Source of the DNA: an uncultured Chlorobiaceae bacterium | Lineage (GTDB): Bacteria > Bacteroidota > Ignavibacteria > UBA10030 > SZUA-254 | Assembly: GCA_964520905.1 (NCBI GenBank) | Contig: CAZFQL010000007.1 | Location: 39,603 to 103,602, forward strand | Reading direction: 5' to 3' | DNA length: 64,000 nucleotides | In this document: piece by piece, positions 33,877 to 41,715 of the stretch | How positions within the stretch are numbered: position 1 is the first letter of the stretch | How the letters are laid out: each line of letters opens with the position of its first letter | Made by a program: the position numbers and the translations under genes | The notes under the pieces: generated by a model | The model's input: the letters and a program-made list of their open reading frames with translations, nothing else | Told to the model about the DNA's origin: nothing | Databases searched by the model: none

Positions 33877-34812
33877 TTACACTCCAAAATCTATGAACGG
33901 CACCGGTGGAAAAGTAAGTATAAAAGTGATGAAAGCAAACCATCCCAAGAATTTTCTTGTTGGAGTCAGTACAGTATCATCGTTTATCTCCGGATGTTTC
34001 AGCTTAATCAGGAAGTATAAAATTGCCGCCCATAGCAGCCATCCTATAGATCCAAGATACAGCTTGAATCCGAAGAACGGTATGAAGCTAAGCAATCCCA
34101 TGGCAATCAGCAGACCGAAAAAGATTTTTGCTATGATGGTTTGCCACTTCCCGCCGATGAGTGCATACATAACATGACCTCCGTCTAATTGACCTACCGG
34201 CATTAAGTTAAGCGCCGTAACAAACAGCCCGAACCAGCCGACACAAAGATACGGATAATGGTAGATTTCATTCATAGGCGGAACGAAGCCGTTCCAGGTG
34301 AAAAGCTTCGTTATGCCGTAGAAGAAAATCGACTGCCCGAATGAAAATCCGTTTGTTGGAATTTCTCCTGACGGTAAGTATTCCGGATGGATTGAATAAA
34401 TATAGGATTTGTCGGGGAGCGTTAGTAATCCATACACTAAAATAATAATAGTAACGATGAAGCCGGCAATTGGTCCCGTAATGCCGATATCGAATAAAGA
34501 TTTCTTGGATGAAAAACTTGAGCGGATGCGTATGACCGCGCCGAGCGTGCCGAACGGATTCACAAGAAACGGCGGCGCGGGGATGTAATACGGAAGTGTT
34601 GTGCTTATCTTATGATACTTCGCGGCGAAGTAATGACCGAACTCGTGCGCCGACAACATAGCCAGAATACTGATTGAATAGGGAAGACCATACCAGAAAT
34701 TGGCAAGCTCCAGCGGGTCTTTGTTTAACCACTGCACTCCGGCGAGTGTTGTGGTGAAGAACGTGAGAACAAATAAACTAATGTTGAGTGTGTACGACCA
34801 GAATTTTTTCAA
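33877..34812 (-). CDS. Membrane zinc metalloprotease, M50/site-2-protease-like
   Basis: 311 aa, polytopic. HExxH motif in a TM helix (AHEFGHYFAA) and a downstream LDGG-type motif (VGQLDGGHV) typical of the S2P/M50 family. Confidence 0.7.
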   Translation of the reverse strand: MKKFWSYTLNISLFVLTFFTTTLAGVQWLNKDPLELANFWYGLPYSISILAMLSAHEFGHYFAAKYHKISTTLPYYIPAPPFLVNPFGTLGAVIRIRSSFSSKKSLFDIGITGPIAGFIVTIIILVYGLLTLPDKSYIYSIHPEYLPSGEIPTNGFSFGQSIFFYGITKLFTWNGFVPPMNEIYHYPYLCVGWFGLFVTALNLMPVGQLDGGHVMYALIGGKWQTIIAKIFFGLLIAMGLLSFIPFFGFKLYLGSIGWLLWAAILYFLIKLKHPEINDDTVLTPTRKFLGWFAFITFILTFPPVPFIDFGV

Positions 34813-34972: not shown

Positions 34973-35680
34973 ATGCCATCAACTAAAGATATATTGCTTC
35001 AGATTCTCGAAGAATCATCAATTCAACACAAGTCGTTTGGGAAAACACAACTCATAAAATTACTCTACCTCGCCGAAGTAGAATATTACAGAAATTGCAA
35101 CCAACGTTTGACCGATCTAAATTGGCTTTTTTATCATTACGGTCCATATGCCCTTGAGCTAGAAGATATTCTTTCTGATAAGGTATTTGAACAGACGAAA
35201 ATAAAAACGCAGGATGAGAAAGACTTCATTCTCTTCAAGGTTGCTGAAGGGTTAAGCCGGTATAAATCTGAAGTCGACACCAAAGTGAGTTTGATTATTA
35301 AGAAGATAGTTGGGCAATGGAAAGATAAATCGCTTGAGGATTTGTTGGACTACGTGTACTATGAAACAGAGCCGATGGAAGCAGTTGATAAACGGGGAGA
35401 TGTACTAGATTTTACAACGATAAAAAAAGAAAATACTCAGGTTGTAATTCCTCTTAAAGCTTCAAAAGAAACAGAGCAAAAGGTTGCTGAGTTGAGGAAA
35501 CGAATTGCCCCGACACTCAAAAGACTTGGCGAACAAAACAGAACAGAACAACACGAGGACAAGGGATACAGCGATGCTATGGAAGCTTGGGATGAAGAGG
35601 AACAGGTTAATGCGGATGCCTTGCAGCATTTAAAGATCATAATCAAACCACAGACAGACTCTGACACGCAAGGGCATTGA
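34973..35680 (+). CDS. Panacea-domain (DUF4065, SocA/GepA-like) protein, candidate antitoxin
   Basis: 235 aa. N-terminal GKTQLIKLLYLAEVEYY...LTDLNWLFYHYGPYALELEDIL matches the KLxKLLYfAq...fxAWxhGPvxpevy core of the Panacea domain. The acidic, low-complexity C-terminal half is plausibly a toxin-binding/neutralising region. Confidence 0.55.
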   Translation: MPSTKDILLQILEESSIQHKSFGKTQLIKLLYLAEVEYYRNCNQRLTDLNWLFYHYGPYALELEDILSDKVFEQTKIKTQDEKDFILFKVAEGLSRYKSEVDTKVSLIIKKIVGQWKDKSLEDLLDYVYYETEPMEAVDKRGDVLDFTTIKKENTQVVIPLKASKETEQKVAELRKRIAPTLKRLGEQNRTEQHEDKGYSDAMEAWDEEEQVNADALQHLKIIIKPQTDSDTQGH

Positions 35681-35684
35681 CATA

Positions 35685-36350
35685 TTGGGACTTGTGGAAA
35701 CCAGCTTTGAAGCTGGACCTACAGTAGGGTTTACCGTTGGGGAGATTGTTGAAATTCCGTCCTTATACCCAAACAAAGATAAATTAATTCTTGATGTTAA
35801 TGTGTCTGCTGATCCGAGTGAAGGTGAACTTCCTACGATCATCAGCCCCCTTGACCAACGACAATTTAAATTACCTATAAAAAGCCTTGGCTTGAAAGTA
35901 AATGAACATTGGTTTGCGGTCAAAGGGAAAATGCGCCCTGCAATTATTATTGCAAAAGGACCAACTCGTTGGGCGACGAATGAATCCGAGCAACTAATGA
36001 TCTGCGTGCCGCTTTACACGGTTGATAAACCAAAAATTCACCGAGAGTTTGTTATAAGTGCTCAGGCTTTTCAATATCCGAGTAAATTTTATATCCCACC
36101 GTTTCCAATGTTTCATATCGAGGAAAGCATTGCACGTTTTGAGTTGATTCAAATAGCACATGTATTTGCAGTAAGAAAATTTCCAGCCAATACAAATCCG
36201 GCAATGCTGTCCGATGAATTCTTCAGTCTTTTACGACTTTGGCTCATGTCATATCTTGGTGGAGCAATTGATGAAGAAGAAATTGAAATTTTAAAATTAT
36301 ATGGAAACGATATTTTGAATGAAGCTAGAAGGCAAGGAGTAGTTATTTAA
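35685..36350 (+). CDS. Hypothetical protein with a PemK/MazF-like core segment, candidate toxin partner of the Panacea gene
   Basis: Up to 221 aa. TTG 35685 lies 4 nt after the upstream stop; alternative starts are GTG 35694 or later ATGs. The segment HWFAVKGKMRPAIIIAKGPTRWATNESEQLMICVPLYT resembles the MazF/PemK signature (..W.V.f..gkkRPalVls....vivvPiTs), flanked by unrelated N- and C-terminal extensions. Assignment is tentative. Confidence 0.35.
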   Translation: MGLVETSFEAGPTVGFTVGEIVEIPSLYPNKDKLILDVNVSADPSEGELPTIISPLDQRQFKLPIKSLGLKVNEHWFAVKGKMRPAIIIAKGPTRWATNESEQLMICVPLYTVDKPKIHREFVISAQAFQYPSKFYIPPFPMFHIEESIARFELIQIAHVFAVRKFPANTNPAMLSDEFFSLLRLWLMSYLGGAIDEEEIEILKLYGNDILNEARRQGVVI

Positions 36351-36538
36351 AACTTATGCCCACACTAACTTGGATTGATAAAAAAGCCGTAGAGAATCAC
36401 CATCGGCACGTCCCGTTTTATTTGCTTACTAAGATAACGAAATAACCAGAAAAGTAAAATGATAAAAAAAGCTGAGATATTTTACGTTGATTCTCAATAA
36501 GAAATTATTATATTTACTGGACAATAGGAGATTGAAAA

Positions 36539-36697
36539 ATGAGGGTGGAAACATGCCCTAAAAGTTTTAGTGCGGATGATTGGAATAGTAAACATAATAA
36601 AACCGTTATGAAATATGGAGAGAATATAGTGGAGAAGTTGTTTGGTGAAAATGAAATTAACGAGTTGACTGAATTTGCGAAGAGGTTGGCGGCATAG
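36539..36697 (+). CDS. Small ORF (52 aa) with a strong Shine-Dalgarno, upstream of the large nuclease-domain gene
   Basis: Not in the supplied track (<60 aa). ATG at 36539 preceded by AGGAG (36526-36530) at 8-nt spacing, which is unusual here because most genes lack an SD. Encodes MRVETCPKSFSADDWNSKHNKTVMKYGENIVEKLFGENEINELTEFAKRLAA. No homology recognised. Confidence 0.3.
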   Translation: MRVETCPKSFSADDWNSKHNKTVMKYGENIVEKLFGENEINELTEFAKRLAA

Positions 36698-36732
36698 ATA
36701 TTCTTAAATAGTCTTGAAATAAACTTGAACAT

Positions 36733-39700
36733 ATGAAACTAGGCGAACAGGAAAATAAAAAGACTTTCGAGTATAAGCCCTCGGACTTCATGCGTGGACG
36801 AAGACCTGAGCTTTACTCTGACTCCAAGTACTTCGAAGAAGCACGGATTTCCAAGGAGGTATTTGAATATCATCTTGAGACACTTACGAGTAGAAAACAG
36901 GAAATTGAGTTTGAGCATTTTTGCAGAAGACTTGCCGAAAAGGAGATTTGCCCAAATCTCCTTCCCCAGACAGGACCAACTGGGGGTGGAGATAGTAAGG
37001 TAGATACAGAAACCTATCCGGTAGCGGACGAAATCTCTGAGAGATGGTATGAAGGCTTTGGAAAAGCGGCGGGCATGGAGCGTTGGGGATTCGCATTTAG
37101 TGCCAAGGAGGACTGGCGCTCTAAAGTTAACGGAGATATTAAGAAAATCGCAAAAACAGGAAAGGGATATAAGCAAGCATTTTTTATTACAAATCAATTT
37201 GTGAAGGATAATGTAAGAGCAGATGTTGAAGCAAAGCTGGAAAAAGAGCATGGTATTCCAGTACGCATCTTAGATCGCAGTTGGATAATGAAATCCGTCT
37301 TTGAACACCGTCGTTTAGATATTGCAATTGAAACGTTGAGACTCGAAGGTGTATCTTCCCACGCAAGAATGATCTTAGGACCTAACGACGTGGCTCGGAA
37401 AACCGAGTTGGAAGAATTGGAAAATAGCATCCAGGATCCAGAAAAATACAAAGGATTAGATTATCAATTAGCCGAAGATTGTTTACGAGCAGCCATTCTC
37501 GCACGTGGGCTGGAATTACCAAGAGTTGAAATTGATGGACGGTTTGAGCGAGCAAAGCGAATCGCAGAAAAAGCCGGAATCCCTAAACAGAGAGCCCGAA
37601 TCATTTATATGGAAGCGTGGACGGCTCACTGGTGGTATGATGATTTTGGAAAACTTAATAGTCTATATAAGGAAATTGAAGATTTAACGGTTGAATCCAA
37701 TCAGGCATCAGAGCTTGAGCGGTTAGTTAATCTCTGGCAGATTCTTAATACCGCAGTGCATGTCGGTTCATTGGATCAGGATGTAGCTCAAATCGAAGAG
37801 AGAACTTCAAGACTTCAAAAAGCACTAAATCAACTTGCAGCAGATTCTACTCGACCAACAAATGCTCTTGAGGCTCAAGCACTCAGAGTTTACATGGATA
37901 TCACCAGGGTGCTGAATACACCGCATGAGTTGACCCGTATCTTGAACCAGATTAGGTCAATCATCATAGGGAGTGAAAATCTTCATGCTTTTCCTGCTGA
38001 TCCACTTAGTAGAATTGTTCGTGAACTGGGCGACTTTTTGTCAGACAATGCAGAATACGATGTTTTGCTTGAAACCGTAGTAGCAACTGCTGAGAAGCGA
38101 AAAAGTGAAGGTGAAGCTGGTCGTATCCTGCTAGAGCGTGGTATTCAGAAATTCCAAGCAGGAAAAACATACGAGGCAATAGAGTATTTTGGACGAGCAA
38201 GGCGTAAACTTGCCAAAGAAGAATACCAGCAGGAATTGATTTCCGTTCTTGCTGGTTTGACGATGACGTATGAAAAAGCTGGTCTCTTATGGGCCGCTCG
38301 GGGTTGTGTCCTTGCTGCGGCGAACGAACTCTTCTCTACGTTTGTGAAGGACGGTAAAATCGAGAAACGCGTTCTGAAGTACTTTATGAGAATGGTATGG
38401 ATAGAACTGCAACTTGGTCGAATTCCACCCGCCCTGTCTTGGATGGATATGGCGCATTTAGTTGCTAGTCAAGTTCTCACAACTGAAGAAGAAAAAGAAA
38501 CTTATGAGGCTCAACGTGATGCTCAATCGTTATTTATTGGCATTATATTTCTTCGTATGGATGTTTCTAACCTAAAGTGGCTTGATTTTTTACCTGAAGT
38601 CATTGAAAGGCGTGGGTTGAATACTGCATGGTTCTCACTTCTTTATGCGCTCGGTTATGAAGATTACCTCCGAGCACAGAAAGTTATTCCAGAGACCGAG
38701 AGTAGTGAATCAATTCAAGAAATGTTCATTGAGGGTACAACAGGTTCAAAAAGTGAGGATATACCAGAATGTTCTGAACTATTCCTCCAAAGAAGGGTAG
38801 TGTTTCACTCGTGTGTTCTTGGCTGTCAAGTAGTTGTTGATCTCGAAAATTCATTATCTTCTATTTATTTGGCTGAGACTATCTTAGCCGCACTGGAATC
38901 TTTTCTTGCTACAAGCCTTTCTGACTTTATGCCGATAAGATCCGAATTCAGGATCTATCTAAATGAATCCCATAGCTTAAAAGAAATCAAGAAGCCTGAG
39001 ACGAAAGAAGATGAAGGAACACCAATCTTAGTAATTACACATCCTGAAGGATTTGATTACAATTCAAAGGAAGAGCATGAACGGTTCGGTGATTGGTTAT
39101 TAGAAACAGTTATGACAATTGTATTTCATATTGGTATAACTGATAAACCTGTTGAGCATTTCAAGAAGCGCATCCTTGATGAGGATTTGTTAAGTCGTGC
39201 TTTTGATTTCACAAACATTGGGACGATGACGGAAAATATCCTTGGTACACGTTCTGGTTACTCAATCTCAGATTGGGAAAGCGAGAAAGTCTCAGAACGA
39301 TTTCCAATTAGAAGGGATTTCCCTTGGAACCACGGGCTTCAAATGCCTAAGCCAATGGGGAGTATTGAAGTGGAAAACAAACTTGCAAGTCTTAAGCATA
39401 CAAAAGAACCTCCATCGCTGGATGAGATGAAGCATAAAGATCAGAAAGTGTTCTCAATTATTGAACCGTCTCTGTGGAACAAAGCTGGGTGGCAAGGAAC
39501 ACTTTTTATCACCGAACCAACATATCACGAGCCACCATGGTTGTGTGTTTTATTTAAAAATGCAGATGCTGGAATCCAAATCTTCGAAAAATGGCAAAAA
39601 GAAATAGGCCATAAGGATCTCTCAGAGAAAATTCAAATATCAATCATACGAGGAATTGATAGACAGAATCCTGCCCATTACGCCGTATTCATTGGAATCA

Positions 39701-40080
39701 ACGATAAAGTCCTCATAACTGAACCAGTTGGTAAAAGATTTGTTATAGCATCACGCTTTCATCGTATGGCTCCCAACGATACCCTGAATCTCGATCGCTT
39801 CTTAGATAATTATGAACACGTTAAGACTTATCTTCTGGCACCGGCTAATGCTTCTGGTCCTTATAGCAGGCCCACGATAAATAATAAGCTAGGAATACTT
39901 AAGAAGCAGTTAAGGGTAATTGAGGCATGGCAATTGTGTGAAAATGATATGGAAATTTGCGTGGTTGAGAATCCTGATAATGTGATCGTCCCCGATGGTG
40001 TCACTGATAATCCTATCAAGCACGCATTTAAAGAATTGTCTGAACGTAGAAAGAAAATAAAGCCTTCAAATGCTGACTGA
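36733..40080 (+). CDS. Large (1115 aa) protein: N-terminal Mrr-type PD-(D/E)xK restriction-endonuclease-like domain, long alpha-helical (TPR-like) middle region, uncharacterised C-terminal domain
   Basis: Residues ~55-165 FEHFCRRLAEKEICPNLLPQTGPTGGGDSKVD...WGFAFSAKEDW...GYKQAFFITNQFV follow the Mrr_cat order: FE..L, G-x-G-D-x-x-x-D, [QS]-x-K, then vFvTts.F. The ~600-aa middle region is helix-rich, and the C-terminal ~300 aa have no recognisable motifs. No P-loop was found. Confidence 0.55.
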   Translation: MKLGEQENKKTFEYKPSDFMRGRRPELYSDSKYFEEARISKEVFEYHLETLTSRKQEIEFEHFCRRLAEKEICPNLLPQTGPTGGGDSKVDTETYPVADEISERWYEGFGKAAGMERWGFAFSAKEDWRSKVNGDIKKIAKTGKGYKQAFFITNQFVKDNVRADVEAKLEKEHGIPVRILDRSWIMKSVFEHRRLDIAIETLRLEGVSSHARMILGPNDVARKTELEELENSIQDPEKYKGLDYQLAEDCLRAAILARGLELPRVEIDGRFERAKRIAEKAGIPKQRARIIYMEAWTAHWWYDDFGKLNSLYKEIEDLTVESNQASELERLVNLWQILNTAVHVGSLDQDVAQIEERTSRLQKALNQLAADSTRPTNALEAQALRVYMDITRVLNTPHELTRILNQIRSIIIGSENLHAFPADPLSRIVRELGDFLSDNAEYDVLLETVVATAEKRKSEGEAGRILLERGIQKFQAGKTYEAIEYFGRARRKLAKEEYQQELISVLAGLTMTYEKAGLLWAARGCVLAAANELFSTFVKDGKIEKRVLKYFMRMVWIELQLGRIPPALSWMDMAHLVASQVLTTEEEKETYEAQRDAQSLFIGIIFLRMDVSNLKWLDFLPEVIERRGLNTAWFSLLYALGYEDYLRAQKVIPETESSESIQEMFIEGTTGSKSEDIPECSELFLQRRVVFHSCVLGCQVVVDLENSLSSIYLAETILAALESFLATSLSDFMPIRSEFRIYLNESHSLKEIKKPETKEDEGTPILVITHPEGFDYNSKEEHERFGDWLLETVMTIVFHIGITDKPVEHFKKRILDEDLLSRAFDFTNIGTMTENILGTRSGYSISDWESEKVSERFPIRRDFPWNHGLQMPKPMGSIEVENKLASLKHTKEPPSLDEMKHKDQKVFSIIEPSLWNKAGWQGTLFITEPTYHEPPWLCVLFKNADAGIQIFEKWQKEIGHKDLSEKIQISIIRGIDRQNPAHYAVFIGINDKVLITEPVGKRFVIASRFHRMAPNDTLNLDRFLDNYEHVKTYLLAPANASGPYSRPTINNKLGILKKQLRVIEAWQLCENDMEICVVENPDNVIVPDGVTDNPIKHAFKELSERRKKIKPSNAD

Positions 40081-40221
40081 CACCCCAACTCAAATCTAGT
40101 AAGGTGACGGTTTTACGTTGCAGTGCACGCCAAAACTTTTCCCCTTGTGAAGTGGAACATCCCGCTGAAAGCGGGAGTGGTAAATACAAAAGGGGTCAGA
40201 TAAGACAAGGAATAAAATAGT

Positions 40222-41715
40222 TCATTTCCAACTCTTCAAAAACTCCACAAGCAAACGCACACCAACACCTGAGCCGCCTTTGGGTGCGTATGGGTGCTGT
40301 TCTTCGAGCATCGCTGTTCCTGCGATATCGAGATGAACCCATTTATAATCACCTATAAATTTCTTCAGGAAAAATCCTGCGGTGATTGCACCAGCCCATT
40401 TGCCTCCGACATTTTTCACATCGGCAATGTCGCTCTTGATTTGTTTTTCGTATTCATCGAAAAGCGGTAATTGCCATACCCGCTCAAAAATTTTATCGCC
40501 TGCGGTTTTCAATTTTGCCATCAATTCTTCATCGTTGCCCATCATGCCGGTTGCGTGCATGCCAAGCGCAACCACACATGCACCCGTGAGTGTCGCAAGA
40601 TCGATGACGGCTTTTGGTTTATATGTTGCCGCATACGCTAAAGCATCAGCTAGAATGAGCCGACCTTCGGCATCTGTATTATCAACTTCAGATGTCTTGC
40701 CGCCGTAATGCCTAATGATGTCGCCGGGTTTCATCGCCGAGCCGCTCGGTAGATTTTCTGTTGCAGGAATCAATCCAACAAGATGAACGGGCAATTTCAA
40801 TCGCACTGCCGCTTCCATCGTTCCAATTACTGCCGCCGCACCCGACATATCCATCTTCATCTCAGCCATCCCGTTAGATGGTTTGATGGAAATACCACCA
40901 CTATCGAAAGTGACACCTTTTCCAACCAACACAATAGTATCGAGGTTTTTCTTGTCAGCATTTTGCTCAAGGATGATGAAGCGGGGAGGTCTCGTACTGC
41001 CTGCGTTCACAGCGAGGAGTCCGCCGAATTCTTCCTTCTCGATCTTCCTTTTATCCCAGATTGTTATGTTATATCCATATTGCTCGGCAGATTTCTTGGC
41101 TGCATTTGCCAATGTTTCGGGATAAATCTCGCAGGCGGGGGCGTTGGCAAGGTCTCTTGCTAAATTTGTCGCTTCACAGATGATTCGGACATCGTTAAGT
41201 TCTTTCTTTACATCTTTGACAATTGACTCGGCAGGATCGGAAATTGTAATTTCAATAATCTTGCTCAGCTCATCTTTCTTTTTCGTCTGGTATTTATCAA
41301 ATTTATAGAGTGATAGATAAGCGCCTTCAGCGATTGCATGAGAGATTTTCCTGCTGTCGGTTTGACCAAAAGCCGGAAGATTAAAAGCAAGATGTTTGAT
41401 GCGCGATGATTGTGCCTGTCTTGCTACAGCGGCAGATGCACGGCGGTAGCTTTCGTGAGATAGTTTTTTCTCTTCACCGAGTCCGACAAGATATAATCGT
41501 GGAGCGGTTAATTTCTTGTCCGTCAGGATGGAAAGAACTACTGCTTCCTTTCCTTTGAAGTTTTCAAGCGCGATGATTGTATCGATTCTCTTTCCCAGAA
41601 TCTTTCTCAGATTGGCGATCTCCTGCTGGAATAGTTTTTTATCTTCCCGGACAAAAACCGTGACGGCATCGGCTTTAATTTGTCGTAATGTCGATTTCTG
41701 TGCTGTTAATCTCAT
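40222..41715 (-). CDS. pepA: Leucyl/cytosol aminopeptidase (M17 family)
   Basis: 497 aa. M17 signature NTDAEGRL and VGKGVTFDSGG. Confidence 0.85.
   Translation of the reverse strand: MRLTAQKSTLRQIKADAVTVFVREDKKLFQQEIANLRKILGKRIDTIIALENFKGKEAVVLSILTDKKLTAPRLYLVGLGEEKKLSHESYRRASAAVARQAQSSRIKHLAFNLPAFGQTDSRKISHAIAEGAYLSLYKFDKYQTKKKDELSKIIEITISDPAESIVKDVKKELNDVRIICEATNLARDLANAPACEIYPETLANAAKKSAEQYGYNITIWDKRKIEKEEFGGLLAVNAGSTRPPRFIILEQNADKKNLDTIVLVGKGVTFDSGGISIKPSNGMAEMKMDMSGAAAVIGTMEAAVRLKLPVHLVGLIPATENLPSGSAMKPGDIIRHYGGKTSEVDNTDAEGRLILADALAYAATYKPKAVIDLATLTGACVVALGMHATGMMGNDEELMAKLKTAGDKIFERVWQLPLFDEYEKQIKSDIADVKNVGGKWAGAITAGFFLKKFIGDYKWVHLDIAGTAMLEEQHPYAPKGGSGVGVRLLVEFLKSWK

Follow-up and report, generated by a model that had tools for sequence, protein, structure and literature searches.

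The window analysed here, a stretch of 64,000 nucleotides, contains a single gene for a 1115-aa protein that we interpret, with a probability of roughly 55%, as a stand-alone, horizontally mobile immune protein in which an effector and a sensor are joined for anti-phage (or anti-MGE) defence. It is a strong candidate for a new single-gene immune system because the slot that it occupies holds a known anti-phage gene in close relatives. A sequence-only reading of this DNA had already proposed a single-gene accessory or defence system at this position. The ORF has proved to be real, and the proposal is now strongly supported by the lack of a partner gene across 82 loci, by a patchy spread over phyla, by mobile contexts and by the presence of Tiamat in the sister slot. 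The exact 1115-aa protein is also present on Logan contigs. The features of the gene and its surroundings are collected in Table 1.

Table 1. Positions in the window of the 1115-aa gene, its protein parts and motifs, and the neighbouring features.
Feature	Position	Strand	Remarks
M50 peptidase gene	33877..34812	-	conserved left flank of hotspot
Panacea-pair insertion	34973..36350	+	absent from sister contigs; separate, outside the system
Panacea-domain (SocA-like) gene	34973-35680	+	first gene of the pair
221-aa partner of Panacea gene	35685-36350	+	second gene of the pair
52-aa sORF	36539..36697	+	first ~22 codons in flank conserved with sister contigs; 3' end cargo-specific
Cargo cassette	36655..40221	.	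replaces tmtA (Tiamat) cassette of sister contigs; left edge approximate, right edge = pepA stop codon
Gene for 1115-aa protein	36733..40080	+	stop codon included; real ORF
N-terminal α/β domain, residues ~30-215	36820..37377	+	restriction-endonuclease-like, Mrr-like fold (predicted); 62% mean identity
Motif I F60-E61, helix α1	36910..36915	+	F 100%, E 91% conserved (149 representatives)
Glycine-rich loop and motif II Q79-TGPTGGG-D87-SKV-D91-T-E93	36967..37011	+	D87, D91 100% conserved
Motif III position S123-A-K125, end of strand β3	37099..37107	+	S 100%, K 86% conserved
K131-x-x-x-D135, helix after motif III	37123..37137	+	both 100% conserved
TPR-like solenoid, residues ~216-676	37378..38760	+	all-helical; no β-strands, no NTPase (model)
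C-terminal α/β region 1, residues ~677-850	38761..39282	+	net acidic
Linker, residues ~851-899	39283..39429	+	low-confidence in model, poorly conserved
C-terminal α/β region 2, residues ~900-1070	39430..39942	+	β-rich; conserved H901, W915, W920, Y983, W1066
pepA (M17 aminopeptidase)	40222..41715	-	conserved right flank of hotspot

The AlphaFold model of the protein (pLDDT 84.8) is predicted to comprise four parts, namely an N-terminal α/β domain, a TPR solenoid of ~460 residues and two C-terminal α/β domains. The N-terminal domain is the best-conserved portion, with a mean identity to homologues of 62%, followed by 46% for the TPR region and 33-38% for the C-terminal domains. The helical, TPR-like body described from the sequence is borne out by the model as an all-helical solenoid, and the reported absence of a P-loop also held: no Walker A motif is conserved (one of 55 sequences has one, by chance), and a Pfam search of the full protein returned no AAA, NACHT or NB-ARC domain. 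The C-terminal portion, in which no motif had been recognised, likewise gave nothing, whether the C-region profile was compared with PDB sequences or 77 C-regions were scanned member by member against Pfam and PADLOC.

The C-terminal regions bear directly on an alternative that we consider unlikely, in which the protein is a DNA-sensing type IV restriction enzyme. The C-terminal α/β domains would then read DNA modification or structure, with the TPR region serving only as a scaffold for oligomers, and foreign DNA recognised in this way would be cut by the Mrr-like domain with no abortive infection. MspJI, AspBHI and Mrr read DNA directly through their DNA-binding domains. As in type IV enzymes, the protein is encoded by a single gene with no methyltransferase partner, and the family gene often adjoins type I R-M genes; a 460-residue TPR solenoid, however, is atypical of restriction enzymes and typical of protein-binding sensors. 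C-terminal region 2 has a slightly basic character, and its conserved tryptophans, tyrosine and histidine would be compatible with a base-flipping pocket, but neither Pfam nor PDB profiles revealed a DNA-reader domain of any kind, be it SRA, EVE, YTH, winged-helix or another, and acidic residues outnumber basic ones in both the TPR body and C-terminal region 1. The structural matches of the N-terminal domain divide in the same way: AspBHI, MspJI and LlaBIII rank near the top, whereas the best single match is the Avs4 effector.

The N-terminal domain had been assigned to the Mrr type from its motif order. In the predicted structure it contains the α-β-β-β-α-β core of the restriction-endonuclease-like fold. 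In the Mrr family, the motif I Glu lies in helix α1 after a conserved Phe (Mrr F171-E172); motif II reads D-x-x-[IV]-D, its first Asp being the family marker (Mrr D199/D203) and both of its acidic residues being essential in LlaGI (D74/D78); and motif III, where β3 ends, is a Q-x-K whose Lys is essential (Smith et al. 2009, PMC2790908). The domain has the motif I FE pair, and its G86-D87-S-K-V-D91 segment fits the motif II pattern, including the family-specific first Asp. D135 lies at +10 from the motif III Lys, which is the position of Mrr E231. The successive spacings in Mrr and in the protein studied here are 27/26 (I to II), 4/4, 2/2 and 10/10, with one 16-residue insert relative to Mrr separating motifs II and III. 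The canonical Q-x-K of motif III is replaced by S123-A-K125.

Among 149 diverse representatives, D87, D91, S123, K131 and D135 are invariant, and E61 and E93 are at least 90% conserved. Of the catalytic residues predicted earlier, the two motif II aspartates thus proved fully conserved, while the motif III lysine is retained in only 86% and is otherwise replaced by M, Q or T. Motif order and register (FE, D87/D91, S-x-K) and the modelled fold stand, but a significant Mrr_cat match does not. Pfam Mrr_cat (PF04471) did not match the protein and matched only one of 78 family members (E = 0.074); a HMMER profile of the N-terminal domain, run alongside 5000 shuffled controls, gave no alignment at all with E. 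coli Mrr; and hhalign lent no support, either against a single Mrr or, in a comparison of two profiles both of low diversity (Neff ~2.7-2.8), against a 35-sequence Mrr_cat profile (probability 0.2%). The only PDB match of the N-domain profile was the ribosomal protein uS7, at borderline significance (E = 0.004); since uS7 has another fold and only a local pattern matches, we regard this hit as spurious. A PADLOC search with 78 N-domains (E ≤ 1) returned three families only, all marginal (best E = 0.017) and none of them a nuclease-effector model. On the evidence of the modelled fold, the domain is a divergent Mrr-like module missed by current profiles.

This divergence could also be read as a lack of DNase function. 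The N-terminal domain would then keep the endonuclease fold but serve as an RNase, as a nucleotide- or ligand-binding module or as an inactive interaction domain, in a protein that acts as a TPR scaffold or regulator and is borne by mobile elements. The variable motif III lysine and the failure of sequence profiles to recognise Mrr_cat are in keeping with such a role, as is the family-specific glycine-rich loop QTGPTGGGDSK, which is unlike canonical Mrr and disordered in both models (pLDDT < 50). We regard it as quite improbable, given the strict conservation of D87, D91, K131 and D135 and the near-conservation of E61 and E93, the register of these residues with Mrr residues essential in LlaGI, and the fact that no other part of the protein is as well conserved.

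The module also occurs in another setting. On a Mycobacterium gordonae plasmid the N-terminal domain is joined to an unrelated body of 840 residues, which points to modularity, and the fusion gene adjoins Shedu and a restriction endonuclease. This distant domain keeps the K131/D135 pair, and its motif III Lys is absent. Since the domain is divergent and missed by profiles, defining it would improve the annotation of other effector fusions, of which this protein beside Shedu is an example.

Homologues of the 1115-aa protein form at least 2216 clusters at 90% identity. They occur in 308 of 185,579 species genomes, distributed patchily over more than 15 phyla, on at least 12 plasmids (seven of them conjugative) and on five IMG/VR contigs. 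Plasmid-borne members include WP_162690711.1 on pAt2 of A. tumefaciens and others on pCP040303 of Nostoc sp. TCL26-01 and in C. necator, B. plantarii and Sphingobium YBL2. Searches of the full protein against Pfam, NCBIfam, PADLOC, PHROGs and PDB sequences yielded zero matches. PADLOC, which had been suggested as a check, matched no model: nothing was found at E ≤ 0.1 in PADLOC-DB v2.0.0, which includes Tiamat, Upx, Shedu and the PDC candidates. The family is thus large and has neither an existing annotation nor a Pfam, NCBIfam or PADLOC model. Two plasmid matches were set aside: one from Pantoea, considered as an effector swap, is a remnant truncated at its N-terminus, and one from Rhizobium is a fragment only.

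Across 82 loci there is no conserved partner gene; the commonest neighbour cluster occurs in only eight. Type I R-M subunits, integrases, resolvases and IS elements recur beside the gene. A qualitative survey of the neighbours also recorded ICE genes, Pycsar TIR, DRT (UG19), Shedu and Zorya, and further neighbours are ZacC, DrmD and an Avs1b-like NACHT. One homologue lies in an ICE with HipBA, ArdC and HsdR, and another in a Tn7-like element with TIR, DAC and NACHT genes. The gene is therefore an accessory, mobile one, located in defence islands and variable hotspots.

Such surroundings would also suit a selfish or maintenance function of the mobile elements themselves, such as plasmid or ICE addiction, entry exclusion or competition between elements, rather than host immunity. 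The frequency of family members on conjugative plasmids, ICEs, integrative elements and Tn7-like transposons speaks for this, as does the Panacea TA module that adjoins the gene in the window. No conserved antitoxin or immunity partner was found in the 82 loci, however, and the slot in the window is chromosomal, is flanked by housekeeping genes and, in the sister contigs, contains a known anti-phage gene instead. We consider a selfish role a little more doubtful still than a non-DNase one, although its difference from defence is partly semantic.

In the closest relatives, whose PepA and M50 proteins are 88% and 85% identical, TmtA/Tiamat (E = 9e-232) is the sole ORF between pepA and the M50 gene, in the same orientation, and the slot is chromosomal and lies between housekeeping genes in these sister contigs as well. 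Sister-contig homology ends exactly at the pepA stop codon. The pepA-M50 junction is thus a clean case of single-gene defence cassettes, here the 1115-aa gene and Tiamat, being exchanged between close relatives. The earlier description of an accessory islet from 34973 to 40080 between the M50 gene and pepA holds as regards an accessory slot, but the islet is made up of separate pieces: the Panacea genes form an insertion of their own, and the sORF has its 5' part in the conserved flank and not in the cargo. Predicted promoters and terminators near the gene did not rise above background, and neither tRNA nor Rfam elements were found in the window.

A check for the gene among relatives, which had been recommended, showed it to be absent from 80 of 80 PepA relatives, close and distant, so that it is not a core syntenic gene. 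A housekeeping role for the protein in host DNA repair or recombination, as its housekeeping flanks in the window and the commonness of PD-(D/E)xK nucleases in repair might suggest, is effectively refuted by this phyletic pattern, in which the few species carrying it are scattered over phyla and no synteny is kept.

Among the closest known systems are the Avs proteins. Avs2 and Avs3 combine an effector, a TPR region and a β-rich 'C-terminal sensor', the effector being an Mrr-like nuclease in most Avs2 proteins. The protein studied here likewise has a putative N-terminal effector and a putative C-terminal TPR sensor, and by analogy its order of effector, TPR and β-rich C-terminus may correspond to that of Avs2 and Avs3. 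The top fold match of its modelled N-terminal domain is the EcAvs4-Mrr effector (PDB 8DGF). It differs from Avs in having no central STAND NTPase, residues 216-676 being all-helical and without Walker A, and it has neither a PADLOC Avs match nor detectable sequence similarity. With the Mrr family (PF04471; LlaGI/LlaBIII, MspJI, AspBHI, AF1548) it has in common the fold of the N-terminal domain, motif I FE, motif II D-x-x-[IV]-D and the acidic residue at +10 from the motif III Lys, at near-identical spacing. It is nevertheless undetected by the Pfam HMM, HMMER and hhalign, has S-x-K with a variable Lys in place of Q-x-K, carries the insert that separates motif II from motif III, possesses an additional, invariant glycine-rich loop, and has entirely unlike domain partners.

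DSR2 combines a SIR2 NADase effector with a helical-repeat sensor and no NTPase; a phage protein that binds is the presumed activator both there and in the protein studied here. The general plan may be analogous, in that a large single protein has an N-terminal effector, then a long α-helical repeat sensor, and no ATPase; the effector here, however, is a predicted nuclease and not an NADase. DSR2 shows no sequence or structural match to the protein and is absent among the fold matches listed. Tiamat resembles the 1115-aa protein as a large single-gene system with a PD-(D/E)xK-type domain, and TmtA fills the identical slot, but the two sequences are unrelated (BLASTP E = 0.76) and no TmtA model matches. 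The nuclease-type domain of TmtA (NOV_C) is C-terminal, and its N-terminus is a Sacsin-like ATPase. Upx, too, is a single-protein PD-(D/E)xK system with a large putative sensor for a phage protein. Its canonical nuclease is C-terminal and it has two nuclease domains; identity with Upx was rejected because the architecture differs and no PADLOC model or PDB sequence matches.

On the immune reading that we favour, the N-terminal Mrr-like PD-(D/E)xK domain would be the DNA-cleaving effector, and the TPR solenoid together with the two C-terminal α/β domains would form the sensor and scaffold. In the uninfected cell the nuclease would be kept inactive. The TPR/C-terminal module would bind a ligand from the invader, most probably a conserved phage protein, and this binding would drive or rearrange oligomerisation, bringing two nuclease domains together into a competent dimeric active site; indiscriminate DNA cutting would then abort the infection. 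Put simply, the protein may act like a nuclease-type Avs or like DSR2, minus the STAND NTPase.

More tentatively, the family may constitute widespread bacterial pattern-recognition receptors, spread over more than 15 phyla and carried by plasmids and ICEs, in which an Mrr-like nuclease is coupled directly to a sensor of TPR and β-domain, no STAND NTPase being involved. The non-canonical active site, with its migrated Lys (K131), acidic D135 and glycine-rich loop, would become complete only once the ligand has induced assembly. If so, the ATP-driven oligomerisation switch of Avs/NLR-type sensors would be dispensable and the activation mechanism would be new.

If the immune role is validated, a large and phylogenetically broad family would be added to the catalogue of single-gene immune systems, and with it a natural experiment on the need for an NTPase switch in effector-TPR sensors. 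Plasmid homologues are available from cultured Agrobacterium, Cupriavidus, Burkholderia, Nostoc and Sphingobium strains, and the hypothesis is therefore directly testable.

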